From NCBI GenBank assembly GCA_965116875.1, contig OZ220733.1, forward strand, positions 4,640,001 to 4,704,000: 64,000 nt of DNA, given 5' to 3'. Made by a program: the position numbers and the translations under genes. This DNA comes from Candidatus Latescibacterota bacterium. GTDB taxonomy: Bacteria; Latescibacterota; UBA2968; GCA-2709665. Below the pieces are notes generated by a model. That model saw only the letters and a program-made list of their open reading frames with translations. It had not been told where the DNA came from and did no database searches. Of the stretch, positions 1 through 53,774 are shown one piece after another; the first letter of the stretch is position 1; every line of letters starts with the position of its first letter.

Positions 1-2181
1 GTGGAACGACCGGTCCTGGTGCTGGCGGGGGCCGGATCCGGCAAGACGCGTGTGCTCACCCACCGACTTGCATACCTGATTGAGGCCTGCGGCGTCCATC
101 CGGGCGCGATCCTGGCCATGACGTTCACCAACAAGGCTGCGGGTGAGATGAATGGGCGCGTGGAAAAACTGTTGAACCGCAACACCGGGGGCATGTGGCT
201 GGGGACGTTCCACTCCCTGTGTGCGCGCATCCTGCGGAGGGAGTCCGGGTCCGCCGGCCTGGACTCCAATTTTGCAATTTACGACGCGGCAGATCAGCTT
301 GCGTTGTTGCGACAGGTGATTCGGGATCAGGAGATATCCGAGCGACAATTTCCTCCAAGGCGGGTTCGCGCCCGGATCAGTTCCGAGAAAAGCCGGATGG
401 TCGACCCGGTCTCTTTCGCCAACCGCGCCGGTTCCTTTAACGAGCAGCAGGTCGCCCGGATCTACCGGCAGTACCAATCAGCGCTGCAACAGAATAACGC
501 GGTGGATTTCGACGATCTGCTGATGTTGACCGTGCAGGTCTTTCGGGACGATCCGGAAGTCCTGACACGGTACCGGAACCGGTTTGAACACTGTCTGATC
601 GACGAGTATCAGGATACCAACCGGCCGCAGTACCTCTTTGCGCGTATGCTGGCGGAGGAACACGGCCGCATCTTCGTGGTTGGCGACGACGACCAGAGCA
701 TCTATGCCTGGCGTGGCGCGGACCTGGGAAATATCCTGAATTTCGAGCGGGATTTTCCGGATGCATGCGTCATCCGTCTCGAGCAGAACTACAGGTCGTC
801 ACAGGTGATTCTCGACGCGGGAAACGCGGTGATTCGCAACAATCTCGGGCGGAAGGGGAAAGAACTCTGGACGAATCGGGATCGCGGAGAACCGATTCAG
901 TTGTTTCGATGCTCGGACGAAGGGGACGAGGCCCGGCGGATCGCTCGTGAATTGAAGCGATTGAGAACGCAATACAACTACGGTGAAATCGCCGTATTGT
1001 ATCGAACGAACGCGCAATCCCGTGCACTGGAAGACGGGCTGCGATACCGGGCGATTCCGTACGTGATCGTGGGGGGCGTTCGATTCTACGAACGCCAGGA
1101 AGTCAAGGATGTGCTCGCTTACCTGAGGCTGATCGTGAATCCCAGCGATTCAGTCAGTCTTTACCGGATTGTCAATACACCGCGCCGCGGAATCGGCCAG
1201 ACCTCGCTCGAAAAACTGGTTTCCTTCGCAACGGGCGAGGGCATTGCACCCTACGAAGCGTTGTCTCGCGCCAATGCCGTCGACGGCCTGACCGCACGCG
1301 CGAGACGCGCGATGGTTGAGTTTCACGGCATGATCGAAGGGTTCCGGAGCCGGCTGGAGGTTGATTCTGCCCACCTTCTGGCGGCCAACGTCGTCGAGGA
1401 GACCGGATATCTGCAGACACTTGAGGATTTGACGCCGGCCGAGACCGTCTCCCGCTCAGAGAACGTGCAGGAACTGCTGGTGGCCATCGAGGATTTCGCG
1501 CAACGCTCGGACACCCCGTCGCTGTCGGCATTTCTGCGGGAGGTCGCGCTGGTCACCGACGTCGACCAGTGGCGCGAAGAGGCCGATGCCGTGACGCTGA
1601 TGACGCTGCACAGCGCCAAGGGGCTTGAGTTTCCTGCGGTGTTTATTGCGGGTCTGGAAGAAGGCTTGTTCCCTATTCTGCGGGATCAGGACGATCCGGT
1701 TGCCGAAGACGCGGCCGTGGAGGAGGAACGGCGGCTGTTCTACGTGGGCGTCACGAGAGCGCAGGACCGGCTCCATTTGACCTGCGCCCAGCAGCGCCGG
1801 CGTTACGGAGGAGCGACGGTCAATGCCGAATCCAGATTCCTGCGGGAGATACCGGATGGTCTGATCGTTCGTGACGGAGCCGTTCGAGAGGTTTCTCAGA
1901 CATCAAGGTCGACGAAGAGACTGAATGACCACGGCCCTGTCCCCGTCGAGGCGGGCGCCGTCGTTCAGGAGGTTTCGCCGGCATCCAGGCCCACGGACGA
2001 ATTGAATGTCGACGACCCGTTCCCCCTGGAAGCGGGCGCCGCCGTTCTCCATCCTACCTGGGGACGGGGGCACATTCTGGACCGGACGGGAAGCGGTCCC
2101 GATACGAAAATCACGGTTTCCTTTCAGAATGGTATCACAAAAAAGGTGGTCGTCCGTTTCGCCGGACTCCAACCGGGATGA
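1..2181 (+). CDS. pcrA: ATP-dependent DNA helicase PcrA/UvrD (5' end probably just outside the window)
   Basis: Walker A AGAGSGKT, TFTNKAA, DEYQDTN, VGDDDQSIY, LEQNYRS, TLHSAKGLEF, EERRLFYVGVTRA; C-terminal HPTWGRG Tudor-like domain. Confidence 0.95.
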   Translation: MERPVLVLAGAGSGKTRVLTHRLAYLIEACGVHPGAILAMTFTNKAAGEMNGRVEKLLNRNTGGMWLGTFHSLCARILRRESGSAGLDSNFAIYDAADQLALLRQVIRDQEISERQFPPRRVRARISSEKSRMVDPVSFANRAGSFNEQQVARIYRQYQSALQQNNAVDFDDLLMLTVQVFRDDPEVLTRYRNRFEHCLIDEYQDTNRPQYLFARMLAEEHGRIFVVGDDDQSIYAWRGADLGNILNFERDFPDACVIRLEQNYRSSQVILDAGNAVIRNNLGRKGKELWTNRDRGEPIQLFRCSDEGDEARRIARELKRLRTQYNYGEIAVLYRTNAQSRALEDGLRYRAIPYVIVGGVRFYERQEVKDVLAYLRLIVNPSDSVSLYRIVNTPRRGIGQTSLEKLVSFATGEGIAPYEALSRANAVDGLTARARRAMVEFHGMIEGFRSRLEVDSAHLLAANVVEETGYLQTLEDLTPAETVSRSENVQELLVAIEDFAQRSDTPSLSAFLREVALVTDVDQWREEADAVTLMTLHSAKGLEFPAVFIAGLEEGLFPILRDQDDPVAEDAAVEEERRLFYVGVTRAQDRLHLTCAQQRRRYGGATVNAESRFLREIPDGLIVRDGAVREVSQTSRSTKRLNDHGPVPVEAGAVVQEVSPASRPTDELNVDDPFPLEAGAAVLHPTWGRGHILDRTGSGPDTKITVSFQNGITKKVVVRFAGLQPG
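1882..2049 (+). repeat. Degenerate 81-bp (27-aa) in-frame tandem duplication in the PcrA C-terminal linker
   Basis: VREVSQTSRSTKRLNDHGPVPVEAGAV vs VQEVSPASRPTDELNVDDPFPLEAGAA; GAGGTTTC at 1888 and 1969. Confidence 0.75.
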
Positions 2182-36688: not shown

Positions 36689-37936
36689 ATGTCTCACCCG
36701 GACGTACGGCGACACATGCGGGTCCGTCATACGGATTGGGGCGACGCCGTGCGTATCGACCTCAATCAGTTGGGTTCGCAACTGCCCGCTTACGACATAC
36801 AGGGCGCAACGTGGTCGGAGACTACCGGCGAGGCATTACGCGACGAATGGTCGGAGTCCCAGAACGTGGCGCTCTGCGACACGATGACGGAGGTCGCCGC
36901 CGGGTTTGGAGGGGGTTTTGGTTCCTTTGCCGAATGGACGGTTCTGCACAACAAGCGGTACGACGGCACCCACATGCGCGATGTGCGGCGGGCTCGGTTC
37001 GGTCACGGGTACCGCGCCGCGATCACCACGCTTGGCTGGGCGCATTCAAGGACCGGCCTCTCCACGTGCATTCAGGCAGTGGGTTATGTGCCCAGACCCG
37101 GCGCGACGTTCCATCAGGCCATATGGCGTCCGGAATCATTGTACGATACGGAGTTCATGGCGCTTGCCCCCGCCGTCATTACCCGGTTCGGCGGAGGCCG
37201 GCAGATCCATCTGTCGGGCGTTGTCGCGTGGGACGAAGACATCAATCCGCTGTTCGAAGGACAACCGGAACGCCAGATCCGCCACGTGTTCGATCTCATC
37301 CAGGACGTTTTTGAGGAGGGGGGCGGCTCGCTGAGCGACGTCGTGCGTCTCCGTCCGTTCGCCCACTGTACGAGGATCGCGCGCCTCATCCGCAAGGAAG
37401 TAGACCGGCGCTGGTCCGGCCGTCCGCGACCCGTCGTTATGATGTCGGACAGCCGGCGTTTCGGCGATTCACCCAGCCTGTTCGCGGAAATACAGGTCAT
37501 GGGGGTCCTGTCCGACAGCGATAGCGAGGTGCGTCACTCGGAGACCCGGATTCCCGCCGGAGTCCCGGATGATGGCGCCTTGCGGATTCGCCGCTGCCGC
37601 GCCCGTGGCTGGGAACTGATCCAGATGGGCGAACTGCGGGCGCCCCGGGGCACCGACCCGTGCAGGGAGGCGGAGCAGGTTGCGGAACAGCTGGCAACCG
37701 TCATCGATCGGCTGTCGCTTTCACGGAGAGAAATCTGTCTGACGTTTGCCTACGTCAGTTCACCGGAAACCGCCGAGGCGTTCCCGGAAATCGTCTCCCA
37801 GGCGGTGCCGGCGGAAACGGTGCACGTGTTGCCGTGCCCCGCAATGCCTGAACTGGATGGGCGCCGCGTCAAGGTGGAACTGACAGCCGGACGGCGCGTG
37901 GATCGTGTCTCGTCAACGGAATCGGAAAACCCCTGA
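36689..37936 (+). CDS. Multi-domain RidA/YjgF-fold protein
   Basis: Central domain IHLSG..QIRHVFD.I..V.E.GG.LSDVVRL...FAEIQ; degenerate flanking copies ending CIQAVG and VKVELTA; AAGGAG RBS. Confidence 0.6.
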   Translation: MSHPDVRRHMRVRHTDWGDAVRIDLNQLGSQLPAYDIQGATWSETTGEALRDEWSESQNVALCDTMTEVAAGFGGGFGSFAEWTVLHNKRYDGTHMRDVRRARFGHGYRAAITTLGWAHSRTGLSTCIQAVGYVPRPGATFHQAIWRPESLYDTEFMALAPAVITRFGGGRQIHLSGVVAWDEDINPLFEGQPERQIRHVFDLIQDVFEEGGGSLSDVVRLRPFAHCTRIARLIRKEVDRRWSGRPRPVVMMSDSRRFGDSPSLFAEIQVMGVLSDSDSEVRHSETRIPAGVPDDGALRIRRCRARGWELIQMGELRAPRGTDPCREAEQVAEQLATVIDRLSLSRREICLTFAYVSSPETAEAFPEIVSQAVPAETVHVLPCPAMPELDGRRVKVELTAGRRVDRVSSTESENP

Positions 37937-38063
37937 TACCATTGGCCGCAATCGGGCGGTTCCCCACGCGTTTCCTGCGTATCCTTGCGGAACGATCTTC
38001 ACCGCTGTCCGGTCTAAAGCACAGTGTACGGTTCTCCCTCGGAACACGAAAAAGGGGCTGGCA

Positions 38064-38969
38064 ATGCGTATCGTTGCGACTGGATTGACGAAGATCTATC
38101 CGAAGGGGACCGTGCCCGCGCTGGACAACGTGGACCTCGAGATCGGAAAGGGGACCTTCGGGCTGCTCGGACCGAACGGCGCGGGAAAAACCACGCTCAT
38201 CAAGATACTTTCAACTCAGATGGCGCCAACGTCCGGCCATGTAAGCGTGGGTGCCTGGGATCTGCAGCGGAACCGCTCCGAGGTTCGTCGCAGTCTGGGA
38301 TATCTTCCCCAGCACTTCGGTTCGTATCCGCAACTGACGGCGTGGGAGTTTCTGGACTATATGGACCGGCTGGCGGCCGGACGGAGACAGAACGGCAGAA
38401 AAGGGCGTGTGCGCGATGCGCTGGAGAACGTGGGTCTTTACGACGTGCGCGACCGCCGGACCGGCACGTTTTCCGGGGGAATGATGCGGCGCCTCGGGAT
38501 TGCGCAGGCCATTGTGGGCGATCCGGAAATCCTGGTCGTCGATGAGCCCACCGTGGGACTCGATCCGGAAGAACGCATTCGGTTCCGGGGAATCCTTGCC
38601 CGGTTGAGTCGGGACCGGGCCATCCTGATTTCAACCCACATCGTGGGCGATATTTCAAGTACCTGCGATGATCTGGCGGTGCTGAACACAGGGCGGATCG
38701 TCTACAGGGGATCTCCCCAGGCGCTGGTTGATCGCGCCAATGGCAAGACGTGGCGCCTGCAGGCGGACGATGCCGAATTCGAATCGATATCCCGGAAGTT
38801 TCTTGTCGTGACGGTCGCGGTGGACGGCGGCCGGATGGACCTCAGGTTCGTGGGCGATGCCCGGCCGCCTGCAAACTCCGAACCGGTACCACCGAATCTC
38901 GAAGACGCGTACGTGTATTTTATGGGTATGGAGAATCCTGAACGGGACGCAGGAGCGCAAGGATCATGA
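38064..38969 (+). CDS. ABC transporter ATP-binding protein (DrrA-like)
   Basis: [41 protein letters not shown]. Confidence 0.93.
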   Translation: MRIVATGLTKIYPKGTVPALDNVDLEIGKGTFGLLGPNGAGKTTLIKILSTQMAPTSGHVSVGAWDLQRNRSEVRRSLGYLPQHFGSYPQLTAWEFLDYMDRLAAGRRQNGRKGRVRDALENVGLYDVRDRRTGTFSGGMMRRLGIAQAIVGDPEILVVDEPTVGLDPEERIRFRGILARLSRDRAILISTHIVGDISSTCDDLAVLNTGRIVYRGSPQALVDRANGKTWRLQADDAEFESISRKFLVVTVAVDGGRMDLRFVGDARPPANSEPVPPNLEDAYVYFMGMENPERDAGAQGS

Positions 38970-41900
38970 ATACGGTCTTCACCATATTGTCCGTAGCCAG
39001 ATACGAGCGCAAAATGCTGATGCGAACAATCCGGTTTCGCATCCTGGGCGGTATCGGCGTACTCATCCCCGTTGTCCTGGGTATCGGCGTGGCGATCGCG
39101 GAATCCAGAGGCGTCGAATTCGAATCCGTCAGCGGAATCGGCGCCTATATGCCCTTCTTCGTCTACAGCCTCCTCCAGACCGTGGTGATCGCGTTTATTG
39201 TGGGAGATTTCAGGGCGGCGGATGAACGCGCGGGAATCTACGAGGTGGTTGCGGCGCGGCCGCTGTCTACAGCCGAACTGGTCATGGGCAAATATCTGGG
39301 GGTACTGGGTGCGCTGATCACGCTGAGCCTGATTGTGCTGGTGCTCAGCCTGGGGGTGCAGGCGGCCAAAATCAGCATTACGGGCGCCCCGTTTGCGATT
39401 CGACCCTATCTGACGTACCTGCTTCTGCTGAACCTGCCGGGGCTGATTTACATGTCCGCCCTTACGTTCTTCCTCGGGGCGGTGCTGCGCCGGCAGGCCG
39501 CGGTGACCGTGCTGACCATCGCGTATGTACTGATTGTCCTCCTGTTCCTCGGACGCCGATATGGCGGGGTCTACGACTTCGGCGCGTTCTTCGCTCCTGT
39601 GTTCTACTCGGATATGCTCGGCCTCGGCGATATTCGACGCGTCGTGGAAATCCGGTTCTTCTACGCCCTGCTTGCCCTGTTTTTCTTCGGCCTGTCAATC
39701 GACCGGTATCCGCGGCTGCCTCAATCCCGGGCCTGGCGCAGGTTCGGCCGGTGTCTGACTGCCGGCGGTTTCGCTGCCGCGCTGGGTCTCTACCTGTATA
39801 TTGAAAACCGCGACGCCTCAGACCTCGCGTACAGGACAGCGCAGCTGGAAGTACATGAGAGATACGCCGAACAGCCAACCGTGGCTGTAACGCATTACAC
39901 GCTCGACCTGGATCTTGCCGCAGACCGGATGCCCCTGCGGGGCACGGCGGTTCTGCGCGTTTCCAACCCTCATTCCGTTCCGCTCGACACGCTGGTGTTC
40001 AGTCTCAACCCGGGATTGAGACTGCGATCCGTGAGTGTGCGAAGCGGAGAGGACGCTGCCGTGAACTGGAGGCGTGAAACCGCCGTCGTACGGGTCGGCC
40101 GGATGCTCCGGCCTGACAGCACCGCGACGCTGGCGTTCGTATACGACGGTTCGATTGACCTCAGCGGATTCGATCTGAAGCGCCATCCGGATGCGAGGCG
40201 TCTGAAGAAACGGCGCGCGGGGCCGGGAAGAAAGGGCGATCTGACCGCCTGGATTCGCGGGAATTCCGTATTCCTGCCGCCCCGCAGCCGGTGGTATCCT
40301 TCGCCGGGCGTGGATTACGGACACGAGGATGGCAGACCCGTGTCCTTCGCCACCGCGGATTTGGATATCTCTCTTCCGGCGGGTCTGGAGGTTGTTACCC
40401 AGGGTGTGCCGGTCAGCCGGAAGGCGAAGGGCGATCGGGAGGTCCATTCGTGGAAAGCGCGTCGCCCCGTACCCTTTCTTTCGCTCAACGCTGGCGTCTA
40501 CCGTGTCTTCCAGGCCGAAATCCATGATATCCAATGCGCCGTTTACGTTCATCCGGCCCATGCCAGGCAGGTCACCTTCTTCGAAGACGCCAGGGACGAC
40601 GCCCTCGAAACGCTGGGCGAAATCCTGGACAGCGTTGAACAGGAAACCGGCCTGACCTATCCCTACGAACGCCTGTCAGTTGTGGAGGTGCCGTTCCAGG
40701 TACAATGGTATTACGACGGATGGGAGGAAGCCGGAGGTCTCGTGCAGCCGGGCGTGCTGATGCTGGAAGAGGACGTCCTGATGCGGCTCAATCTGCAGCG
40801 GCGCCTGAAATGGATGCAGCGGCGGCAGAGACGCAACGACGACCCCGCGAGGATAAAGCGGGATCTGCTGGTCAGCGCGGTCCTGCGCACGTTTCTTGCC
40901 CGGGAATCGTCTCAAAGTGGCGTCTACCGGAGTCCAGTGGCGCACCTCTGGTCCTTCAACAAGGGCTTCGAAGGCGAACACTACTCCCTGCTCAAGCGCG
41001 GAATGCCCGTCTATATTCAGCAACATCTCGAGACCAGCCTGCAGCAAAGCCTGTATTCGCGGCGTGGCAGGTTCCGGGGTCTGTTCCGGCGCAACAGGGG
41101 CGCGCGAGGCGTCTCCTGGGATACGGTAACGACAAAGATGCGCCAGCGTTCCTTCGCGGAGCTGGACCCGGATGCCGACGAGGAACTCTACCGGGCGGTC
41201 GTCGACGCCAAGGGCGCCTCCATGTTCGGGATGATGCAGGCCGTGGTGGGTGACGAGACGTTCAGAGACGTGGTCAGCGGTTTCGAGGCGTCAAACCGGC
41301 ACGCGGCGGTCGACTTCGAGTCGTTCGAACGCGCGGCCGTCGGAGATTCCTCCAGCCGGGCCGAACGACCCAACCTGCATCGCCTCGTCAGCGACTGGCT
41401 GCACGGCACACAGGTTCCGGGATATACGCTCACCAGGGCAAAGGCGTACAAAGTGGACGATGGGTGGGGAATGATCGTGTATCAGGTCGTCGTGCGGATC
41501 CGAAACGGAGAACCGGGGCGCGGATTCGTCCAGATTCGAGCGATGGGGAGGGAGGACGAGGCGGTGAAGGGCGTTGAGATCGAGGGTGGGCAGGAAGTCG
41601 AGGTGGGGTTGATTCTCTGGGAACGGCCGTCGAGAGTCAGCGTCGAGCCGTTTTTTGCAAGAAACCGCCGCGTTCTGATGGCGCCGCTGCGCATACCCGA
41701 GCAGCCGATGGACGGTTCCGCCACGACCTACGTGAGAGAGGTCGCCCCGGATGAGACGGGATTGACCGAGATCATCGTGGACAACGACGACGAAGGCTTC
41801 GAAATGCCGGTCCGGAGGGTGCGGCGTTATTTCCGACCGCAGTTGAAAGGGGACAACTGGCAGGAACGACAGATGCCGTTTTCATTCGGCCGGTATGAGA

Positions 41901-42364
41901 CCAACTACAGGTGGAAGAAACCCGGCGACGGCGCGCAACCGGCGGTCTGGACGGCCCGTTTGCCGCACAGCGGGGATTACGACGTCTACTACTATTTCGT
42001 TCATCCCCGGTTCGCCAGGCGTCTGCGAATGGCCACGGAATTCAGTCTGGCGGTCTGCCACGGCGGCGAGGTGGATACACTGGCGGTCGAAGCGGACAGG
42101 CTCAAGGGCGGCTGGAACGTGATGGGTCGATACCGATTCGAGGGTGGGGAGTTGGCCCGCGTCGAACTGTCCGACCGGGCAAACGGGCGCCTCTATGCCG
42201 ATGCGGTGCGCTGGAGGTACGTGGATCCCGATCACCCGGAAGAGGTGTATGAAGAAGATCTTCCGACGTGGAATTTCGGTCGGGGCCGTCGGGGCGGCGA
42301 CCGGGGCGGGCGAGGGGGCGGCAGCCGGAGCGGCGGAGGGCAAACGCGGGGAAGAGGTTGGTAA
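38966..42364 (+). CDS. ABC-2-type permease fused to a degenerate M1-aminopeptidase-like domain and golvesin-like C-terminal domain
   Basis: About 7 N-terminal TM helices (ERAG..E...RP..GKYLG); THYTLDL, LNPGL, WYP, YPYERLSVVEVP; IIVDNDD.GF..AVW..GDYDVY..YADAVRW. Confidence 0.75.
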   Translation: MNTVFTILSVARYERKMLMRTIRFRILGGIGVLIPVVLGIGVAIAESRGVEFESVSGIGAYMPFFVYSLLQTVVIAFIVGDFRAADERAGIYEVVAARPLSTAELVMGKYLGVLGALITLSLIVLVLSLGVQAAKISITGAPFAIRPYLTYLLLLNLPGLIYMSALTFFLGAVLRRQAAVTVLTIAYVLIVLLFLGRRYGGVYDFGAFFAPVFYSDMLGLGDIRRVVEIRFFYALLALFFFGLSIDRYPRLPQSRAWRRFGRCLTAGGFAAALGLYLYIENRDASDLAYRTAQLEVHERYAEQPTVAVTHYTLDLDLAADRMPLRGTAVLRVSNPHSVPLDTLVFSLNPGLRLRSVSVRSGEDAAVNWRRETAVVRVGRMLRPDSTATLAFVYDGSIDLSGFDLKRHPDARRLKKRRAGPGRKGDLTAWIRGNSVFLPPRSRWYPSPGVDYGHEDGRPVSFATADLDISLPAGLEVVTQGVPVSRKAKGDREVHSWKARRPVPFLSLNAGVYRVFQAEIHDIQCAVYVHPAHARQVTFFEDARDDALETLGEILDSVEQETGLTYPYERLSVVEVPFQVQWYYDGWEEAGGLVQPGVLMLEEDVLMRLNLQRRLKWMQRRQRRNDDPARIKRDLLVSAVLRTFLARESSQSGVYRSPVAHLWSFNKGFEGEHYSLLKRGMPVYIQQHLETSLQQSLYSRRGRFRGLFRRNRGARGVSWDTVTTKMRQRSFAELDPDADEELYRAVVDAKGASMFGMMQAVVGDETFRDVVSGFEASNRHAAVDFESFERAAVGDSSSRAERPNLHRLVSDWLHGTQVPGYTLTRAKAYKVDDGWGMIVYQVVVRIRNGEPGRGFVQIRAMGREDEAVKGVEIEGGQEVEVGLILWERPSRVSVEPFFARNRRVLMAPLRIPEQPMDGSATTYVREVAPDETGLTEIIVDNDDEGFEMPVRRVRRYFRPQLKGDNWQERQMPFSFGRYETNYRWKKPGDGAQPAVWTARLPHSGDYDVYYYFVHPRFARRLRMATEFSLAVCHGGEVDTLAVEADRLKGGWNVMGRYRFEGGELARVELSDRANGRLYADAVRWRYVDPDHPEEVYEEDLPTWNFGRGRRGGDRGGRGGGSRSGGGQTRGRGW

Positions 42365-42423
42365 TCCGCTGTAGACCAGCGAATGATAACCATTATATGA
42401 GGTGCAACTTGAACAGAAAAACC

Positions 42424-43491
42424 ATGAACGGTTATTGGATGGTATTCATGGCTGTTGCCCTTCTGGCCGGATGTGGCGGGCAGACCGAACAGCGTTCCGT
42501 GGATCTGACCGTCCCCGTAACGGTTCAGGCGGTGCGTCTGGACACCATGGAGGCGACGGTGGCGGCCACGGGTACGCTCCGGCCCGTCAGAGAAGCCCGT
42601 ATTCAGACCGAGGTCGAAGGAATTATCCAATATGTGGCGCGGGGCGTTGGAGGACGGCCGACGGAGGGAATGCGGGTGACCCGGAACCAGGTAATCGCCC
42701 GGCTAGTGAACAAGGAGCTTGTCGTAAACGCCCGCCTGGAGTCCCGTGATCTTGCTCGCGCCTCAGCGGAGCGTACGTTGCGCGAGCAGGAGGTACTCGT
42801 CAACCGGAAACTGGGCACGGAGAGAGACCTGGAAGAAGCGCGCCAGGCCCTTGCGGAGGCCGAATCCAACTATGAAGACGCTCTCGTTCAGATCGCCAAG
42901 ACGACGATCCGGACGCCAATCGCCGGCTTTCTGACAGGATTGGCCGATATTACCGAGGGCACGATGGTGGAGGCCCGCACGACCATTGCAACGGTGATGG
43001 ATTACCAACAGGTACTCGTCGATCTCAAAGTTCCGAACGCATATATCGCAACCGTTTCAACGGGCCAGGTCTTGCGCGTGGAGAACTACGCATTGCCCAA
43101 CCGACGGTTTCTGGGGACCGTCAGGGTGGTGGACCCGGCCATCGATCCGGCGACGCGTACGTTCCGGGTGGTGGGGGCGGTGAAAAACCCGAACCGGATG
43201 TTACGGCCGGGGATGTTCGTGAAGGCAGAGATTGTCACAGAGTCTCACGAAGACGCGGTGGTAATCCCGCGACGATTCGTCCTGACGCGCCAGAATCGCA
43301 AGGTGGTGTTCGTCGAGGAGGAGGGAAGGGCGCAGATGCGCGACGTGGAGCTGGGACTGGAGGGATCGGAACAGGTCGAGATTCTCGAAGGGCTTGAACC
43401 TGGCGAGCGCCTCATTACCAGCAACTACGAGACGCTGCGGTCCCGTACGCGCGTGCGTGTAACCGGGGAGGACGCTGCGGGGCGGCGGTGA
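42424..43491 (+). CDS. RND membrane-fusion (periplasmic adaptor) lipoprotein
   Basis: Lipobox LAGC, TGTL.P, IRTPIAG, IDPATRTF, LRPGMF, VEILEGL. Confidence 0.92.
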   Translation: MNGYWMVFMAVALLAGCGGQTEQRSVDLTVPVTVQAVRLDTMEATVAATGTLRPVREARIQTEVEGIIQYVARGVGGRPTEGMRVTRNQVIARLVNKELVVNARLESRDLARASAERTLREQEVLVNRKLGTERDLEEARQALAEAESNYEDALVQIAKTTIRTPIAGFLTGLADITEGTMVEARTTIATVMDYQQVLVDLKVPNAYIATVSTGQVLRVENYALPNRRFLGTVRVVDPAIDPATRTFRVVGAVKNPNRMLRPGMFVKAEIVTESHEDAVVIPRRFVLTRQNRKVVFVEEEGRAQMRDVELGLEGSEQVEILEGLEPGERLITSNYETLRSRTRVRVTGEDAAGRR

Positions 43492-43774: not shown

Positions 43775-46700
43775 ATGTCATTGCCCGAATTTTCCACGAA
43801 ATATCCCGTGACGGTCGCGATGGCGACGTTGGCGGTAGCGCTCCTTGGCTGGATCTCGCTGGACCGGCTCGACGTGGATCTCTTGCCCGACCTGCGTTCT
43901 CCCGTGATCACTGTCGACCTGCGATTTCCCGGAAAGACGCCCAGGGAGATGGAGGAACGGTACGCGCAGCGCCTGGAAGGGGACATCGGTACGGTGCGGC
44001 ACGTAAAACGCGTCCATTCGGTGTCCCGCTCCGGGCAGGCCGTGGTGATCGCGGAGTTCGAGTGGGATGCGGACATGGATTTCGCGGTTCTCGACGTGCA
44101 GAAGAAAGTGGCGCGGTACGCATCGGACCCGGATATCACGAGTCTGGACGTGACGCAGGAAGACCCGCAGGCATTGCCGGTGATGCGTCTGGCTGTTTCG
44201 GGGGCGGACTGGCAGGATCCCGATGAATTGCTGGGCAGCGTGGAGACGATCATCCGGCCCAAGCTCGAAGGGTTGCCGGGGGTGGCTTCGGCTGAAATCG
44301 AAGGGGGAGCCGAAAAGGAGATCCGCGTCATACTGGATTCCTATCTCCTGCAAGCATTCGGCGTGAATTCCGCGACGGTGGTCTCGCGGATTCGTGAAGC
44401 GAATTCGGATGTCTCCGGAGGAACGTTGAAGGACGGGCAGCAATCCTACCTGGTGAAGGGCCTGGGAAGGCTGACCGACCTGGCGGACGTGAACAGCCTG
44501 GTTGTGGGCGAGCGCAGCGGCGGATCTTCGAACGGCGGCGAAAACGCCTCGACCGAACGCGTGCCGGTCACGGTCAGCGACGTGGGTACCGTGGCCCTCC
44601 GGTATAAGGATAGGGAAACCATCGTCCGTCTGGACGGGATGGAGTGCGTAGGGCTTTCGGTCTACAAGGAAGCCGGCGCGAACACCTCTTCAGTGGTTAA
44701 CGGGGTACTGCAGGAACTGGAGAGCCTGGAGGCCGATCTGGCCGGCATCCGGTTTACGGTGGTGGAAAACCAGGCACGCTTTGTCGAACGTGCGGTAAAC
44801 GAAGTCGAAGAGGCGGCAGTTATCGGCGCATTGCTGGCCGTGGGCGTGCTGCTTGCCGCGCTCCGGCAATGGACCGCCACGCTGGTGATCGGTCTTGCCA
44901 TTCCGATTTCCGTTCTGGCGACATTTACGCTGATGTATTTCCAGGGGTTGACGTTGAATGTGATGACCCTGGGCGGTCTCGCGCTCGGCGCCGGAATGCT
45001 GGTGGATAACGCCATCGTCGTGATTGAGAACATCTACCGGCGCCTCGAAAGCGGTGAATCAGCCGCAGAAGCCTCCGTCAGAGGCGCCGGCGAGGTCGGC
45101 GTGGCGATACTGGCGTCCACACTGACGACCGTGTCCGTGTTTCTACCCATCGTTTATCTTCACGGTCTGGCCGGCGAACTCTTCAAGGAACAGGCATGGA
45201 CGGTGGCGTTCTCACTGGTTTCGTCTCTCGCGGTGGCGATGTCGGTGGTCCCCATGATGACCGCACGGCTTTTCAGGCGGTATCCACGCAGGTCCACCGG
45301 GGTCGCCGGGGCGCGGACGTTCCGGCGTTTTCTGGACGCGTCGCTCAACCGTAAAGGCCGCACGACAGCGGTACTGGCAGCCTGCATTGCGGCCGCCTTC
45401 TATATGGCCGCGTCCATCCATACGTCGTTCATTCCCACGGAAGACGAGGGGGTACTCCACCTGGACCTCGCGATGCCGGAAGGCACGAGACTCGAGTCAA
45501 CAGACAGGGTGGCGAGACGCGTTGCGGCCATTTCGCAGGCGGTTGCCGGAGAGGAAGCCCGGCACATCTACCTGCGGGTGGGAACGGATCCGAACCGGTT
45601 CACGGCCGTTGGAGAGCCCACAGGCCCGAACCGGGCCGAACTGACGGTCGTCCTGGGCCCTCGGGCGGACCGCCGTGGCGTTACCGAGCTCACCGCCGCA
45701 CTGGATGCTGCCCTCCTGGACGTGCCGAATATCAAGGTGAACTATAGACTCCATAAATCTGCGTTGGAAGGACTTATACGTGGAGGCGCTGCACCGGTCC
45801 AGGTGGAAGTGAGTGGCGAGAACCTGATATTGCTTCGGGAACTGACGGCAGAACTGAAACGGCGCATGGATGCGTTGTCGACGGTATATAATGTTCGAAC
45901 CAGCTTCCAGGACGGGCAGCCCGAAGTGGACGTCGTGCTACGACCGGACGTCACCGCGGCGTTCGGCCTGACTTCACAAAACCTCGTGCGTGAACTCGAG
46001 CGCAGACTCGGCGGCGAGGAAGCCGGTGAACTGTCCAAAGACCAGCGCGAGCGAACCATCCGGGTGGGTTTCGCGGACGTGGATCTCCGTGAACTGGAAC
46101 ACGCCAGAATTGACGGCCCCGACGGGGCAATGCTCACACTGGGAGATCTCGCGGACCTTCGCGTGGTTCAGGGTCCAAGGGAAATCCTGCGTGACGGACA
46201 GCGCAGGGTGGGGAGGGTATCCGCGTTTCTGGCCGAAGGCATGGTCTTGAGCCAGGCGGCAGCGCAGATCAGGCAGGCGGTTGGGCAGATGGCCGTTCCA
46301 CATGGGTATCGTATAACGATCACCGGAGAGGAACGTGAACGGGCCGAATCATTCGGAGGCCTGCAATTCGCCCTCCTGTTGTCCGTGGTACTCGTCTACA
46401 TGGTCATGGCCTCGCTCTTCGAGTCTTTGCTGCATCCATTTACCGTAATGCTGACAGTGCCGTTGGCCGGCATCGGGGTGGTGTTCGCATTCTGGGGCCT
46501 TGGAGAGGCGTTTGGCGTGATGGCATTCATCGGAGCGATCATGCTGGGAGGCATCGCCGTGAACGACGCCATCATTCTGGTGGATCACATCAACCAGCTG
46601 CGGCGTAAAACCTCCGACGTCAGAACCGCCGTACTCCAGGGCGCGCAGGATCGGCTCCGACCGATCCTGATGACCAGCGCCACGACCATTCTGGCCCTGT

Positions 46701-46858
46701 TGCCCATGGCGGTGGGCGTGGGCGAAGGCGCACGTCTCCGGGCGCCGATGGCGGTGGCGGTCATCGGAGGACTGGTCACATCCACATTGATGACCCTGGT
46801 GGTGATTCCGGTTGTCTACGAACTGATCGAACGGCTCAGAAACAGGAGTGCGGCGTGA
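43775..46858 (+). CDS. AcrB/AcrD/AcrF-family RND permease
   Basis: LDVDLLP, AIPISVLATF, GMLVDNAIVVIENI, LVYMVMASLFES, RLRPILMT, IGGLVTST. Confidence 0.93.
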   Translation: MSLPEFSTKYPVTVAMATLAVALLGWISLDRLDVDLLPDLRSPVITVDLRFPGKTPREMEERYAQRLEGDIGTVRHVKRVHSVSRSGQAVVIAEFEWDADMDFAVLDVQKKVARYASDPDITSLDVTQEDPQALPVMRLAVSGADWQDPDELLGSVETIIRPKLEGLPGVASAEIEGGAEKEIRVILDSYLLQAFGVNSATVVSRIREANSDVSGGTLKDGQQSYLVKGLGRLTDLADVNSLVVGERSGGSSNGGENASTERVPVTVSDVGTVALRYKDRETIVRLDGMECVGLSVYKEAGANTSSVVNGVLQELESLEADLAGIRFTVVENQARFVERAVNEVEEAAVIGALLAVGVLLAALRQWTATLVIGLAIPISVLATFTLMYFQGLTLNVMTLGGLALGAGMLVDNAIVVIENIYRRLESGESAAEASVRGAGEVGVAILASTLTTVSVFLPIVYLHGLAGELFKEQAWTVAFSLVSSLAVAMSVVPMMTARLFRRYPRRSTGVAGARTFRRFLDASLNRKGRTTAVLAACIAAAFYMAASIHTSFIPTEDEGVLHLDLAMPEGTRLESTDRVARRVAAISQAVAGEEARHIYLRVGTDPNRFTAVGEPTGPNRAELTVVLGPRADRRGVTELTAALDAALLDVPNIKVNYRLHKSALEGLIRGGAAPVQVEVSGENLILLRELTAELKRRMDALSTVYNVRTSFQDGQPEVDVVLRPDVTAAFGLTSQNLVRELERRLGGEEAGELSKDQRERTIRVGFADVDLRELEHARIDGPDGAMLTLGDLADLRVVQGPREILRDGQRRVGRVSAFLAEGMVLSQAAAQIRQAVGQMAVPHGYRITITGEERERAESFGGLQFALLLSVVLVYMVMASLFESLLHPFTVMLTVPLAGIGVVFAFWGLGEAFGVMAFIGAIMLGGIAVNDAIILVDHINQLRRKTSDVRTAVLQGAQDRLRPILMTSATTILALLPMAVGVGEGARLRAPMAVAVIGGLVTSTLMTLVVIPVVYELIERLRNRSAA

Positions 46859-49800
46859 TTCTCCCCGATCTTGCGGTCCGGCGGCCGGTGACGACGTCCA
46901 TGTTCTTCGCCGCATTCGCCATATTGGGCGTCGTGTCGTGGACGAGGCTTCCGATTCAACTCTTTCCCGAGCTGATCTTTCCCGAGGTGTTTGTCACGCT
47001 GACGCTGCAGGGCGCCTCTCCGGAACAGGTAGAGAGAGATCTGCTGATTCCGGTAGAAGGGGAGATCGGCAAGCTCGACGGCGTTCAGGAGATGGAATCG
47101 TTCGCGACGGCCAACCGGGGGGGAATCCGGATATCCTACGCCCCCGACGTGGATATGAAATTCGCCCTGCTTCAGCTGCAGAGCAACCTGAACAGATTGC
47201 AGCCGACATTGCCCGAGCGCACGCAGACCGATGTGCGCAGGTTCGACTCGACGGATTTCAGCAGCAGCATTATGGAGCTTCACGTGCTTGCCGACTGGGA
47301 CCTGAACTCGTTGCGTGAGTTCACGGAGGAAAAGATCCGACCCGAACTGGAGTCTGTCGACGGTGTTGTGAACGTATCTATAATGGGCGGGCGCCGCAGC
47401 GCCGTGGAAATCGTCCTTGATCCGTTTCTGCTGGAGGCGCATGGCCTTTCGGCGGGGCAGGTGCGGACGAGACTGAACAGCCATAACCGGAGGCGCGAGT
47501 ACCTGGGCCGGGTATTCGACGGGAACCGGGCCTATTCAGTGAGTATTCAGGGACAGTTCACGGACCTGCGTCAGATTCGCGACCTCGTTGTGAACGACGA
47601 CGGCACGCTCAGGCTGGGCGACGTTTCGCGGATCGCATACGGCCTTCAGGAACAGGCCGACCGGCACAGGGTCAATGGCAAACCGTCGGTCGGCGTACGA
47701 ATCCAGAAGGACGACGAAGCGAATCTGATCGAAGTGGCCGCGGCCGTGGAAGCCACCATCGGGCGGCTGAATCGGGACCTGGAAAGTGAAGGCGTGGAAC
47801 TGGGGGTGAGTTCCTCCCAGGCCGATTTGATGAACGGGGCGCTTTCCACCCTGAAACAGGCGGCCGTGGTCGGCGCCGTACTCGGACTGATCGTACTCTT
47901 TCTGTTTCTTCGTAACCTTCGCTTTGTATCGGTTCTCCTGCTGGCCATCCCGGTTTCACTCCTGATGACCTTCAATCTGATGTACCTGGGCGGACTGTCT
48001 GTCAACGTCCTGTCGCTTTGCGGTCTCGCCCTCGCGATGGGAATGCTTGCAGACAACGGCATCGTGGTGATGGAGAATATCTTCAAACACCACGAGCGAG
48101 GAAAATCGCCGGCTCGCGCTGCGCGTGACGGGGCTTCCGAAGTGGGGCGCGCCGTGGTCGCGGCAACGGCAACCACGGTAACCGCATTCCTGCCGGTTCT
48201 GTTTATCGAAAGCGATACGCGGGACCTGCTGCGCGAACTCGCGTTGTCCATGGCGTTTCCGCTCCTGGCGTCTCTGCTGGTTGCGCTTACGCTGGTTCCC
48301 GCCCTCGCCGTCCGCGCGTTGAGCCGGGAGGTCCGGCAGCCGCCGGACGTCCGCGGTCTGCTGGAACGGTACACCCTCCTGCTGAAGGCCGCCTTGCGCC
48401 ACCGCGCGTCGGTGGTCCTGGCCGTGGGTGGCGCTCTCCTGCTGACGCTCGTACTGGCTTTCTTCTACCTGCTTCAACAGCAGGTACGGAGAGAGGAGAC
48501 GCGCTTTACGGTTTACGTGAATCTGCCGGAAGGAGCCACGCTGGATGCCACGGATGAGGTGGTGAAACAGGTGGAAGCGTCCGTTCGGGAGGTGCCCGGA
48601 CTGGATCGGTTTACGACGTCGGTCCGGGAGGCCGAGGCCGACGTAACCGTCATGCTGCTCAACCGCTCCGACCGGCCCGCCGGTATCTCGATGGATGAAA
48701 TCAAGGAACGGCTGGACGAGAAACTGCAGAATGTACAGGGTGGCGTCGTCGGTTACGAACCCAGGGCGCGGGCGGGGAGGGGCGGCCGCGGGCAGGGGAT
48801 CGGGCAACGACGGAGACGCGGTTCCGGAGGCTTCGATCTGACCGGGGCCGCGCCGAACGAGCAGGTTGTGGTACGCGGATATGACTTTACGATACTGACG
48901 ATGCTTGCGAACGACGTGTCATACCGGCTCGAGGAACTCGAGGAAGTGGATGCCAACAGCGTACGCGCGGACGCCGAGCGGAGTTCGCCCGAGGTCCAGG
49001 TGATACCCGAGGCGGCCGCCCTGTTCGACCGGCGGCTCGGCGCGCAGGAGGTTCTCGCCGCAATGGGCGACACCCGATGGGACGGATTCCGCACAACCGT
49101 TCCGTTTCTGTTGCCCGACGCGACCGAGATACCCATCGAGGTACGTACGATTGAAGAGGAGGACCGCGACCGGTACGGGCTGGCCGAATTCCGTCGTTCG
49201 CGTATTCTGAATCAGGACGGCCACTATGTGCCTCTTGACGAAGTCGCGCGGGTCCGGACTGACGAGGGCAGAAGCAGCCTGCTTCGGACCGATCAGGCCC
49301 GCCGGCTCGTGGTTACCTACAGGTTTCCTTCGGAAATCCTGGATTCACAGCCCCGGTTGGAACTTGCGAGACGGGTCGTGCGAGCGACGCTGCAGGATAT
49401 GGTGCTGCCTGAGGGTTATTCTATCGAAATCATCGAGGCGCACGAGGAGATGATCTACTATTGGATGATGGCAATCGCCGCGGTACTGATCTATATGATT
49501 CTGGCGTCGCTGTTTGAATCGCTCTCCTCTCCGATCATCATCCTGTGTACGCTCCCGCCCGCCGCCATCGGCTCCTGCTGGGCGCTGATGATGTCAGGCA
49601 CGGGCCTGAGCCAGCAGGAGGGCCCCATGGCGCTCCTGGGATTCATCGTCCTGCTGGGTATTGCCGTAAATAACGGGATCATCCTGGTCGACGCGGTCGG
49701 TGTACTCAGGTCCCGGTTCGGCTACCGCCGTGAACGCGCTGTACTGACCGCGGCGAGGTCCCGCCTGCGACCCATCCTCATGACGACGGCCACGACGCTG

Positions 49801-51567
49801 CTCGGGGTTCTTCCGCTGGCGCTGGAATTCGGCGGCGATTTTGAGATCTGGCCGCCGTTTGCGATCACGGTGCTGGGAGGATTGTCGCTTTCCATGATGT
49901 CCACGCTGATCCTGATTCCGGTTGTGTATATGGGACTGGATCAGATCGGCGACTGGCTTGCCGGAATCGGGTTGGTTGGAGTCACGCTCTCACTGCTGGC
50001 CACTGCCGCGGCCGGCTATGGCGTTTACGTCCGATATGAGAGCATTTTCTGGTTGAGCCTGTCGATATTACCAATCTGGGGCGCATTTCTGGCCGCTGCG
50101 TGGATCATTCAACGGGTGTATTACGCCCGGGTCGCCGCCCGCCGCGTGTCGAGCGCCGTGCACTCCATACAACTGAGGAACCTTACCAAGATTTACGGCG
50201 CTCCCGGGCGTTTCACGAGGGAGTGGGCGCGCACGGAGCGCCGGCGAGGGCGGCTGATGAAAACGGGCCTGGAGCCGAAGGACCGCAAGGCGGTTCGCGA
50301 TGCCCTCATCTGGAAACTGCCAATGCTCGCGCTGTTGTCGTTATTCGCGACCTATTTCGAAGACGAGATCTGGATCTATCTGCACGCGTTGGCTTTGGCC
50401 TTTATGGCCTCCCACGTGGGTCGATGTTTCGGAGAACTCCGCCATTGGCATCTGCCGGCGCTGCCGGCCCGTGTCGTCCGACTGCTGCACAAAGTCGCAC
50501 TACCGCTGGCATTGGTCGCCTATGTACACTGGCGGCTGGACCTGCTTTCGATCACGCTTGCCACTTGCGGGACGTGGGCGGGGTATCGTCTGGCGCGGCG
50601 GCTCGCCGACAGGGTGCGGACGGGCGAAATCAGCCCCGATGACCTGACCGGACGTCTTGTGCGGCCGCGCCGCTGGATTTATCGATTGGCGTCGGCCCTT
50701 CCTCTCATTGGCGTTCCACGGCCGGAATTTCGAGCGCTGGCAAACGTCAACCTGGAAATCGGCAGGGGCATGTTCGGTCTGCTGGGTCCGAACGGCGCCG
50801 GAAAGACCACGTTGATGCGTATTCTCTGCCGGGTACTCGAACCCAGCTACGGGTCCATTCTGATCGACGGCCGAAACATCCTGAATAAAGGCTCGATTCA
50901 CGGACTGATCGGGTACCTGCCACAGCACTTCGGCAACTACGGCCACCTTTCCGCATACGAGTTTCTGGAGTACAGAGCGCTGCTCGAGGGCTTCAAGGAC
51001 AGGAAGATCCGCGAGACCCGGGTGATCGAATCTCTGGAGCATGTCAATCTGATCGAACGAAAAGACGATCCCATCGGTTCATTTTCAGGCGGGATGAAGC
51101 AGCGCCTTGGGATCGCGCAGACGCTCCTGCATGCCCCGCTGATCGTCGTCGTGGACGAGCCCACGGCGGGTCTGGATCCACTGGAGCGTATCCGGTTTCG
51201 CAACCTGCTCGCCAGATTGAGTCAGGATCGAATTGTCATTTTTTCCACGCATATCGTGGAAGATATCTCGGGAAGCTGCAATCGGCTGGCGGTACTGGAC
51301 CGGGGGAGATTGCTGTATACGGGAACGCCGGGGGAGATGAGAATTCTGGCGGCGGGCCGGGTGTGGGACGCGGTGGTCTCGGACGGTCGCTTTTCCGAAA
51401 TGGAAGGTGAATTGAAGCTCATCTCGCACCAGCGAACCCCCGACGGCGTCCGGATGCGTTTCCTGTCGGAGCGCGCGCCGGTCGGCATCGGCGCGCAGAG
51501 CGTGGATCCAACCCTGGAGGACGCATATCTATACCTGCTTGGAGGAGGGGAGGGACAGCCGTGCTGA
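46855..51567 (+). CDS. RND permease fused to extra TM segments and a C-terminal ABC ATPase domain
   Basis: Single 1570-aa ORF: RND motifs (ADNGIVVMEN, LASLFES, RLRPILMT) to about 49940, then [44 protein letters not shown]. Confidence 0.88.
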   Translation: MILPDLAVRRPVTTSMFFAAFAILGVVSWTRLPIQLFPELIFPEVFVTLTLQGASPEQVERDLLIPVEGEIGKLDGVQEMESFATANRGGIRISYAPDVDMKFALLQLQSNLNRLQPTLPERTQTDVRRFDSTDFSSSIMELHVLADWDLNSLREFTEEKIRPELESVDGVVNVSIMGGRRSAVEIVLDPFLLEAHGLSAGQVRTRLNSHNRRREYLGRVFDGNRAYSVSIQGQFTDLRQIRDLVVNDDGTLRLGDVSRIAYGLQEQADRHRVNGKPSVGVRIQKDDEANLIEVAAAVEATIGRLNRDLESEGVELGVSSSQADLMNGALSTLKQAAVVGAVLGLIVLFLFLRNLRFVSVLLLAIPVSLLMTFNLMYLGGLSVNVLSLCGLALAMGMLADNGIVVMENIFKHHERGKSPARAARDGASEVGRAVVAATATTVTAFLPVLFIESDTRDLLRELALSMAFPLLASLLVALTLVPALAVRALSREVRQPPDVRGLLERYTLLLKAALRHRASVVLAVGGALLLTLVLAFFYLLQQQVRREETRFTVYVNLPEGATLDATDEVVKQVEASVREVPGLDRFTTSVREAEADVTVMLLNRSDRPAGISMDEIKERLDEKLQNVQGGVVGYEPRARAGRGGRGQGIGQRRRRGSGGFDLTGAAPNEQVVVRGYDFTILTMLANDVSYRLEELEEVDANSVRADAERSSPEVQVIPEAAALFDRRLGAQEVLAAMGDTRWDGFRTTVPFLLPDATEIPIEVRTIEEEDRDRYGLAEFRRSRILNQDGHYVPLDEVARVRTDEGRSSLLRTDQARRLVVTYRFPSEILDSQPRLELARRVVRATLQDMVLPEGYSIEIIEAHEEMIYYWMMAIAAVLIYMILASLFESLSSPIIILCTLPPAAIGSCWALMMSGTGLSQQEGPMALLGFIVLLGIAVNNGIILVDAVGVLRSRFGYRRERAVLTAARSRLRPILMTTATTLLGVLPLALEFGGDFEIWPPFAITVLGGLSLSMMSTLILIPVVYMGLDQIGDWLAGIGLVGVTLSLLATAAAGYGVYVRYESIFWLSLSILPIWGAFLAAAWIIQRVYYARVAARRVSSAVHSIQLRNLTKIYGAPGRFTREWARTERRRGRLMKTGLEPKDRKAVRDALIWKLPMLALLSLFATYFEDEIWIYLHALALAFMASHVGRCFGELRHWHLPALPARVVRLLHKVALPLALVAYVHWRLDLLSITLATCGTWAGYRLARRLADRVRTGEISPDDLTGRLVRPRRWIYRLASALPLIGVPRPEFRALANVNLEIGRGMFGLLGPNGAGKTTLMRILCRVLEPSYGSILIDGRNILNKGSIHGLIGYLPQHFGNYGHLSAYEFLEYRALLEGFKDRKIRETRVIESLEHVNLIERKDDPIGSFSGGMKQRLGIAQTLLHAPLIVVVDEPTAGLDPLERIRFRNLLARLSQDRIVIFSTHIVEDISGSCNRLAVLDRGRLLYTGTPGEMRILAAGRVWDAVVSDGRFSEMEGELKLISHQRTPDGVRMRFLSERAPVGIGAQSVDPTLEDAYLYLLGGGEGQPC

Positions 51568-53441: not shown

Positions 53442-53774
53442 ATTCGTAGATTTCCGGCTAGTAATTCTGGTCTTCCGAGTACAAATGCGCGCGCGGGAGG
53501 CGAGGAAATACCCACCGGCCCGAAATATGGGCAATCTTTCACCTTTCGTCAAGAGCCGGGCAGGGAATCATCACGGATCCTGCAGCTGCCTGCCCGGGTC
53601 AACGGCGGCCGGAATATTCCACGATCCGCCGATCTCGCCGGGCAGCCTGAATCGTCCGCGGTATCCGTCTTTCGCTTGGCCGGTACCTGGAAAATACCTA
53701 TATTTACGACTTCTTGCCCAGCAGGGAATGTACATTGATTCATCTCACGCTGTTTTGGAATGGAGGAATGCCAA

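Follow-up and report, generated by a model that had tools for sequence, protein, structure and literature searches.

A conserved RND-ABC fusion protein of Latescibacterota whose ATPase domain is predicted to be split by a putative membrane module

Layout of the fusion gene and its divided ATPase domain

The 64,000-nucleotide stretch of Candidatus Latescibacterota bacterium analysed here (contig OZ220733.1, positions 4,640,001 to 4,704,000 of the forward strand; hereafter the window, within which all positions are numbered) carries on its plus strand a fusion gene (46855..51567) that codes in a single unbroken frame for a protein of 1570 residues. This protein combines a permease of the resistance-nodulation-division (RND) type with two additional transmembrane (TM) helices and an ATP-binding cassette (ABC) ATPase that is split in two. 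Its GTG start overlaps the stop codon of an upstream RND gene by 4 nt. A Pfam scan recovers ACR_tran at residues 5-1027 (E 3.8e-185) and ABC_tran at residues 1296-1438 (E 1.8e-26), with no Pfam domain in residues 1028-1295. We consider it probable that the RND chain continues through TM helices 13 and 14 into an ABC nucleotide-binding domain (NBD), the first β-hairpin of which is split by a module of 178 residues. The evidence is computational throughout, with models and conservation analysis sharing alignments; at that level the analysis establishes the split of the hairpin, its conservation, the operon and a canonical interface between the NBD and a permease.

The AcrB/MdtBC-like RND domain (residues 5-1027, 46867..49935, plus strand as for all features of this gene) has DN in TM4 and NN in TM10, keeps the Arg of TM11, and matches the ACR_tran profile over its full length (positions 3-1019 of 1021), which places it in the 12-TM RND family. 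Between its TM12 and the NBD there are two more hydrophobic segments, as the initial annotation had proposed, namely TM13 at residues 1028-1061 (49936..50037; AlphaFold2 (AF2) helix H4-37; 19-residue Kyte-Doolittle hydropathy, KD19, 1.97) and TM14 at residues 1064-1097 (50044..50145; AF2 helix H40-73; KD19 1.99). These are followed by a strand, SIQLRNLTKIY (residues 1104-1114, 50164..50196; DSSP strand E80-90 of the model), which includes the invariant K1112 and Y1114 and which we assign as β1 of the NBD. A family-specific insert between β1 and β2 fills residues 1116-1291 (50200..50727), and the remaining NBD, from β2 onward (residues 1292-1570, 50728..51564), contains all the catalytic motifs and a C-terminal domain. 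The initial annotation had noted that IQLRNLTKIYG and ALANVNLEIGRG are set apart by about 178 amino acids, and its coordinates prove exact on this frame: the former spans residues 1105-1115 (50167-50199), the latter begins at residue 1294 (50734), and the gap comprises 178 residues (1116-1293). Judged from its motifs, the fused NBD is a catalytically intact ABC ATPase, with Walker A, Q-loop, signature, Walker B Glu, D-loop and H-loop all identifiable and the corresponding GPNGAGKT (K1317), Q1357, SGGM.Q, D1434-E1435, D1441 and H1466 invariant in 71 sequences.

An AF2 model of residues 1025-1570, built from an alignment of these 71 sequences, has a mean predicted local distance difference test score (pLDDT) of 89.6 and a predicted template-modelling score (pTM) of 0.77. 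In this model residues 80-90 (protein 1104-1114) form a DSSP strand within a 10-residue block of pLDDT 95, and given that every other strand of the model lies within the NBD (model residue 268 onward), this strand would pair with the NBD sheet. Superposition by VIA-align on the top PDB chains found by Foldseek places it at the position of β1: 50/50 of the listed entries start at model residues 76-81 (with one ABCA4 row at 6), and on the chain side they start at residues -1 to 10, 48/50 of them at residue 5 or below, while in the two ABCA4 rows the alignment begins at the start of their NBD. Since the aligned lengths for free NBD chains are only about 205-264, the insert is skipped in these superpositions. 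Examples are MalK (2r6g_A; Z 27.2, rmsd 1.8 A, 218 aligned residues, model 79..474 on chain 2..224) and TM_1403 (4yer_B; Z 28.4, rmsd 3.6 A, 264 aligned residues, model 77..541 on chain 1..305). Consistent with a role as β1, the strand ends in the aromatic Y1114, in the manner of the A-loop, and superposes on β1 of solved NBDs; the segment immediately before β2 is predicted as a helix (Hf) and not as a strand. In a control fold from which the NBD was left out (residues 1028-1290, 20 sequences) the strand segment becomes coil, with pLDDT below 50 at residues 75-88. The AlphaFold check suggested for IQLRNLTKIY in the initial annotation therefore comes out in its favour, with the segment placed at β1 of the NBD at pLDDT 95. 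Two considerations weigh on the other side, namely that the pairing was read from the DSSP state and from the first and last aligned residues, and that AF2 may be biased towards completing a familiar NBD. From the model we infer that residues 1104-1114 belong to the NBD sheet.

The strand and the insert are also conserved together. An alignment of 20 sequences that spans the phylum, with 17-83% identity to the module of the window protein, contains the invariant positions K1112, Y1114, F1120, R1122, W1124, R1129 and W1153, as well as W1173, P1217, G1266, Y1276, P1283, I1285 and G1286. Because K1112 and Y1114 are invariant across this range of identity, the match of the strand goes beyond chance. 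The Lys of the strand is likewise invariant in the 71 sequences, where conservation of its L, T and Y reaches 90% or more. When 107 proteins (the members of 1480-1700 aa among 124 database proteins) are aligned locally, NLTKIYGAPGRF ranks with the best conserved stretches, and the insert is ungapped except for one 5-residue gap-prone spot. Within the insert, conservation in the 20 sequences is highest in the connectors that flank the A-loop. Thus, motif and insert are both kept in homologues without large gaps, in agreement with the expectation of the initial annotation.

The inserted module and the membrane

TM13 and TM14, each 34 residues long, are plainly transmembrane, with an Eisenberg mean hydrophobicity (<H>) of at least 0.42 in 97% of 102 and 99% of 107 sequences, respectively, and they bring the chain back to the cytoplasmic side, on which β1 is situated. 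Six helices are predicted by AF2 in the insert, most blocks of which have a pLDDT of 81-95. Directly after the A-loop comes Ha (residues 1119-1136, 50209..50262; AF2 H95-112), an Arg-rich amphipathic helix with an <H> of -0.89 and a hydrophobic moment (muH) of 0.72, which contains the invariant F1120, R1122, W1124 and R1129. It is followed by four putative TM helices joined by loops of 6, 5 and 2 residues: Hb (1144-1164, 50284..50346), predicted to run outward, marginal in hydrophobicity and with the invariant W1153; Hc (1171-1196, 50365..50442), inward, with the invariant W1173; Hd (1202-1228, 50458..50538), outward, again marginal, with the invariant P1217; and He (1231-1255, 50545..50619), inward. 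The return connector holds a further amphipathic helix, Hf (1269-1280, 50659..50694), and conserved GR, Y and P.IG motifs that run into β2. The 'roughly four hydrophobic stretches' of the initial annotation agree in number with the four predicted helices of 21-27 residues, although only three insert segments of the window protein pass a 17-residue Kyte-Doolittle value (KD17) of 1.5.

Several features of the family point to a membrane location of Hb-He. Counts of Lys plus Arg average 8.8, 5.0 and 10.3 over the family in the three segments predicted to be cytoplasmic versus 0.1 and 1.2 in the two loops predicted to lie outside, so that the positive-inside rule is obeyed. Invariant Trp residues occur at the ends of insert helices, and the share of the 107 sequences in which <H> is 0.42 or more is 97% for Hc and 71% for He. 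The inserts of two divergent members are hydrophobic as well: KD17 is 1.6-2.45 in four insert stretches of P0243 and 1.6-2.6 in the five stretches scored in P0264. In P0264 the A-loop Tyr and Walker A are 284 residues apart, compared with 197 in the window protein; the C-terminal part of P0264 looks frameshifted. As to the source of the insert, its comparison with the family of the 240-aa permease encoded downstream (P0004, described below) gives an hhalign probability of 0.2%, and hence it is not a detectable copy of that permease.

Other observations speak against embedding. Hb and Hd reach an <H> of 0.42 in only 14% and 39% of the 107 sequences, and He of the window protein has an <H> of only 0.12. 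The summed Hessa energy is 7-8 kcal/mol for Hb and Hd and 6-10 kcal/mol across the four helices of the window protein. The module by itself folds with a pTM of only 0.48, and this fold matches only generic helical hairpins of 61 residues (best Z 8.8). These features would suit an alternative in which the hairpin is indeed split, with the insert forming a cytoplasmic or membrane-peripheral helical bundle of regulatory or docking function and with TM13-14 alone anchoring the NBD. Such a bundle would explain why Hb and Hd are of marginal hydrophobicity and contain K, R, H and P, why He is so weakly hydrophobic in the window protein, where only three insert segments exceed KD17 1.5, and why the middling model of the isolated module resembles soluble hairpins as readily as membrane ones. 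It would sit poorly, however, with a charge census that follows the positive-inside rule, with helices of 21-27 residues connected by loops of 2-6 residues, with invariant Trp and Tyr residues at helix ends, with the TM-like character of Hc and He across most of the family, and with the clearly hydrophobic divergent inserts, which reach a KD17 of up to 2.6. We regard the peripheral bundle as unlikely; given the split hairpin, it is quite likely that the insert is membrane-embedded.

The proposal of the initial annotation that the NBD is pinned to the membrane at its A-loop is thereby carried forward in part: the distribution of charges and the hydrophobic inserts of divergent members favour it, Hb and Hd are marginal, and the embedding on which it depends is likely rather than certain. 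The architecture that we propose is one in which the RND chain would run past TM12 into two TM helices and then into β1 of the NBD, ending at the A-loop Y1114. The module between β1 and β2 would consist of Ha, two likely inner-membrane hairpins (Hb-He) and the conserved return connector with Hf. TM13-14 and the insert would together staple the NBD under the bilayer beside the RND domain, and with the NBD held by TM13-14 and by an insert that probably spans the membrane, both flanks of the adenine-stacking loop would be tethered to the membrane.

Operon partners and a proposed division of labour

The fusion gene is part of a conserved operon on the plus strand. A periplasmic adaptor (membrane fusion protein; HlyD_D23 / RND_mfp) is encoded at 42268..43491, and is followed by RND1 (43775..46858), a partner RND permease of 1027 aa with no extension and with DN in TM4 and ND in TM10. 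Downstream, the start of the translationally coupled gene for P0004 (51561..52283), a 240-aa ABC-2-like permease and the predicted TM-domain partner of the fused NBD, overlaps the stop codon of the fusion by 7 nt. The order adaptor, RND1, fusion and permease is found on one strand in 20/20 loci from across the phylum. Upstream of the adaptor lies a gene for a 1132-aa protein with ABC-2 membrane, peptidase M1 and Golvesin_C regions (38966..42364); an ABC-2/M1-peptidase gene occurs at this place in 15/20 loci, the other 5 having little upstream sequence covered. It is preceded by the gene of a free ABC ATPase paralogous to the fused NBD (37905..38969), the two genes together covering 37905-42364, and the 1132-aa protein may be part of the same system as the fusion. 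A CdaA-type diadenylate cyclase gene (DAC, CdaA_N, YbbR; 52299-53552, minus strand) lies convergent to the cluster and is also adjacent to it in a locus from the same genus (L003).

The signals that link P0004 to the ABC-2 permeases are weak. Its match to ABC2_membrane_3 in Pfam (E 0.0038, 16.8 bits) stays under the cut-off of 31.6, and 10/21 members of its family match ABC2_membrane_2 at E up to 0.1, the best at 1e-6; its look-alikes in the atlas score 0.95-0.98, some of them with PF12679. A model of the complex of P0004 with the C-terminal 546 residues of the fusion scores 0.63, where the best of 3 controls scores 0.00, and passes a mark that is reached by 58/80 solved complexes and 2/110 mismatched pairs. 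Three runs share at least 94% of contacts, with a partner pLDDT of at least 73. The predicted interface joins residues 6-24 (the N-terminal helix), the loop 85-101 and residues 234-238 (the C-terminus) of P0004 to NBD residues 1349-1383 and to Y1114-G1115, and P0004 is accordingly predicted by the models to dock in the canonical groove formed by the Q-loop and helical subdomain of the fused NBD. Since similar NBD-permease complexes have already been solved, this pass may reflect likeness only. A further point to be set against a part for the insert is that, because the confident interface contains no insert residue beyond Y1114-G1115 at its edge, the models assign the insert no role; on these models, an interface without the insert would appear uninformative, either way, as to whether the insert touches the permease.

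In proton-driven pumps of the AcrB type the relay consists of two Asp residues in TM4, a Lys in TM10 and an Arg in TM11. Neither RND paralogue of the window carries this DD/K arrangement, and both keep the TM11 Arg. In alignments with PDB chains, TM4 of the fused RND reads DN versus DD in MdtB and CmeB, and TM10 reads NN versus KN in MdtB (KKN), 7wlv_A and MdtF. The pattern in TM4/TM10/TM11 is constant, being DN/NN/R in 21/21 fused RNDs and DN/ND/R in 21/21 copies of RND1, and the two paralogues therefore differ systematically by one TM10 carboxylate. The relay sites lie at 48043-48069 (TM4) and 49660-49686 (TM10) in the fusion and at 44996-45022 (TM4) and 46553-46579 (TM10) in RND1. The fused RND scores 525 bits against RND_permease_2, under the NCBI cut-off of 1250.

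RND pumps are proton-driven trimers and ABC transporters are ATP-driven dimers, and textbooks treat them as separate classes of energy coupling. As a tentative proposal, we suggest that the present system joins the two in a relay. The NBD and P0004 would make up the ATP-driven half of one exporter, and a heterotrimer of RND1 and the fused RND (RND2), together with the adaptor, its proton-driven half. The ABC-2 half could then move a lipophilic substrate from the cytoplasm or the inner leaflet and hand it to the attached RND heterotrimer, which in a last step would expel it by way of the adaptor and of an outer-membrane factor whose gene lies elsewhere. A search with the OEP family found no outer-membrane factor gene in the window, which counts against this scheme; the genome has 16 OEP (TolC-like) matches in 8 open frames, and as all of them lie outside the window the cluster has no linked outer-membrane factor.

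A different division of labour would have the NBD drive or gate the attached RND protomer through TM13-14 and the A-loop insert, with the small permease serving mainly as a stator. In such a hybrid-energy pump ATP binding at the membrane-stapled A-loop would power or gate the fused protomers, and the trimer would be made of two of these and one RND1; a 2:1 heterotrimer would therefore have exactly two tethered NBDs, which could dimerise. This would account for the loss from the fused RND of the TM10 carboxylate that RND1 keeps (NN versus ND, 21/21 each), for the lack in both RNDs of the Lys of MdtB/MdtF-type pumps, for the concentration of conservation in the connectors around the A-loop, and for the failure to find the module in unfused form. 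Yet the ABC-2 permease is kept in 20/20 loci and is predicted to occupy the NBD groove in the canonical way, which indicates an ordinary ABC transport unit, and the fused RND retains the TM4 Asp and the TM11 Arg. The suggestion of the initial annotation that the topology could couple ATP binding to the RND gains no support from the models, in which the only partner placed on the NBD is P0004. We consider such direct coupling of ATP to the RND protomer quite unlikely, and give more weight, still tentatively, to the relay from the ABC-2 half to the heterotrimer.

Spread of the fusion and comparison with known systems

The free ATPase encoded upstream, which has a probable start at M54 (~38064) and reads MRIVATGLTKIYPKGTVPALDNVDLEIGKG, serves as a comparator for the fused NBD. 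The two are 46% identical over 279 residues in BLASTP, in an alignment that starts at P66 of the free protein and P1288 of the fusion, just past the first strand of the former. With NCBIfam NBD profiles, matches to the fusion start no earlier than residues 1291-1306, and within the profiles at positions 5-35; the GldA profile, for example, has its position 16 at residue 1293 of the fusion and matches the free ATPase from position 1. The fusion is thus without the first 4-34 profile positions that the free ATPase keeps, and whereas the β1-β2 hairpin of the free paralogue is contiguous, 178 residues intervene between the two strands in the fused NBD. The facts that Pfam and NCBIfam pick up the NBD no earlier than about residue 1291, and that the short strand is absent from the BLASTP alignment, could also be explained if the β1-like motif were relictual or matched by chance, and if the stretch of 270 residues behind TM12 were merely an N-terminal membrane anchor of an NBD that functions without the motif or borrows another segment in its place. 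However, K1112 and Y1114 do not vary among sequences whose modules share 17-83% identity, AF2 places the strand at pLDDT 95 in the β1 position of 50/50 listed superpositions and leaves it disordered when the NBD is removed, and the stretch that leads into β2, Hf, is predicted as a helix rather than a strand. Both versions of this explanation are very improbable in our estimate.

The fusion is widely distributed. A database search with residues 1030-1570 listed 120 proteins, all of which carry both ACR_tran and ABC_tran and most of which are 1540-1650 aa long; their source labels include Gemmatimonadota, Latescibacterota, Acidobacteriota and KSB1, and the database names them RND permease or ABC protein. 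Within the phylum of the window the module is found in 84/168 species genomes (E up to 1e-10); 83 of the 84 have a single match, and in the remaining one (G065) the match is in two pieces. The genome of the window itself has a single copy. The listed matches in the 84 genomes have no internal stops, and the complete frames are of about 1570 aa. The two pieces in G065 (C644:3143-4108) share one open frame with about 86 extra codons between them, and the sequence points to another lineage, in which the insert would be larger. The view of the initial annotation that this is an old, adapted fusion is borne out by its occurrence in half of the genomes sampled from the phylum, with a frame length of about 1570 aa throughout, and in proteins labelled as coming from four phyla. 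An artefact of assembly or frameshifting that joins separate genes was rejected as a candidate explanation, being so improbable that it can be set aside: nothing supports it directly save a few truncated or frameshifted database entries such as the C-terminus of P0264, and the 1570-aa frame of the window is uninterrupted, the listed matches in 84 genomes are free of internal stops with complete frames of about 1570 aa, and over 100 proteins of 1480-1700 aa are present in the database.

The module also appears to be confined to this family. A profile built from the 20-sequence alignment retrieved 149 proteins (E up to 0.001) from 1.84 billion representatives, and the full-length matches (about 1550-1594 aa) have the module at about residues 1025-1295. 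Among the short matches, of which 10 were scanned against Pfam and 4 were inspected as sequences, P0243, P0264 and P0270 open with the last part of an RND domain and P0260, P0237 and P0207 carry ACR_tran; P0155, P0144, P0249 and P0255 start within the module and are indistinguishable from truncated genes. A separate search for shorter proteins, with residues 1030-1300 as the query and scoring of only the 8000 candidates that share most words, gave 3 matches: P0126 (2.4-kb contig, carrying ACR_tran) and P0128 (1.3-kb contig, labelled partial), which are fragments, and P0127. This last, 188 aa long, is encoded on a 122-kb contig; it spans just the central part of the module and could be a split or frameshifted copy. 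Neither the profile search nor the search for shorter proteins found an unfused form of the module, though such a result does not prove its absence. Given that the full-length matches are fusions and that those short ones which can be judged begin with an RND end, the module is, on the sequences retrieved, specific to the RND-ABC fusion family.

A conserved covalent fusion of RND and ABC components in at least four phyla raises the issue of how trimeric and dimeric machines with two energy sources cooperate in one exporter, and offers a natural system for the idea that inner-membrane transporters pass substrates straight to RND pumps. Its split NBD indicates that there is room in the β1-β2 hairpin beside the adenine pocket for an entire domain, probably a membrane-embedded one; this bears on NBD folding and possibly on the sensing of nucleotide binding from the membrane. 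Should the unlikely hybrid-energy reading be true, the fusion would be the first case of ATP powering or controlling an RND transporter. Our literature search, with subscription journals and TCDB outside it, turned up neither an account of an RND-ABC fusion nor one of a membrane module within an NBD.

The closest relatives of the individual parts are well known. The fused NBD and its C-terminal domain find their best matches, by structure (Foldseek E 1.5e-22) and by the DrrA and GldA profiles, among ATPases of ABC-2/type V exporters, such as TM_1403 (4yer), NosF of NosDFY and the DrrA/GldA families, which work with 6-TM ABC-2 permeases, and the downstream permease looks ABC-2-like too, though below Pfam thresholds. 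Those ATPases, however, are free soluble subunits with a contiguous hairpin, whereas the NBD of the fusion stands behind an RND domain and is split. The RND components resemble those of MdtABC, where two adjacent RND genes likewise stand behind one adaptor gene, and MdtC/MdtB are the nearest RND matches both by NCBIfam equivalog and in the PDB; MdtB2C reportedly forms a 2:1 heterotrimer. Unlike MdtABC, the present system has DN in TM4 and ND or NN in TM10, one of its subunits has 543 extra residues that include an ATPase, and no outer-membrane factor gene is near it.

The site of the insertion itself has a parallel in CFTR, in which the regulatory insertion of NBD1 (404-435) lies between the same strands 1 and 2 (PMC2217481), and which shows that the β1-β2 hairpin tolerates insertions. 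The CFTR segment is about 32 residues long, mobile, soluble and phosphorylated; the insert of the fusion, in contrast, has 178 residues, is predicted to form ordered helices, is probably membrane-embedded, belongs to a bacterial RND fusion, and has no sequence relationship to that of CFTR. Finally, MacAB-TolC provides an envelope exporter in which, in the account of PMC8277102, an ABC ATPase works with a periplasmic adaptor and its NBD is fused to membrane segments. Both these traits recur in the fusion, but the NBD of MacB is N-terminal and contiguous, sits on an FtsX-type permease and has no RND component. Compared with all of these systems, the fusion presents known parts in a new arrangement, and we found no paper that deals with an RND-ABC fusion with a split NBD, in which a strand, a probable membrane module and the rest of an ABC ATPase follow one another behind an RND permease.

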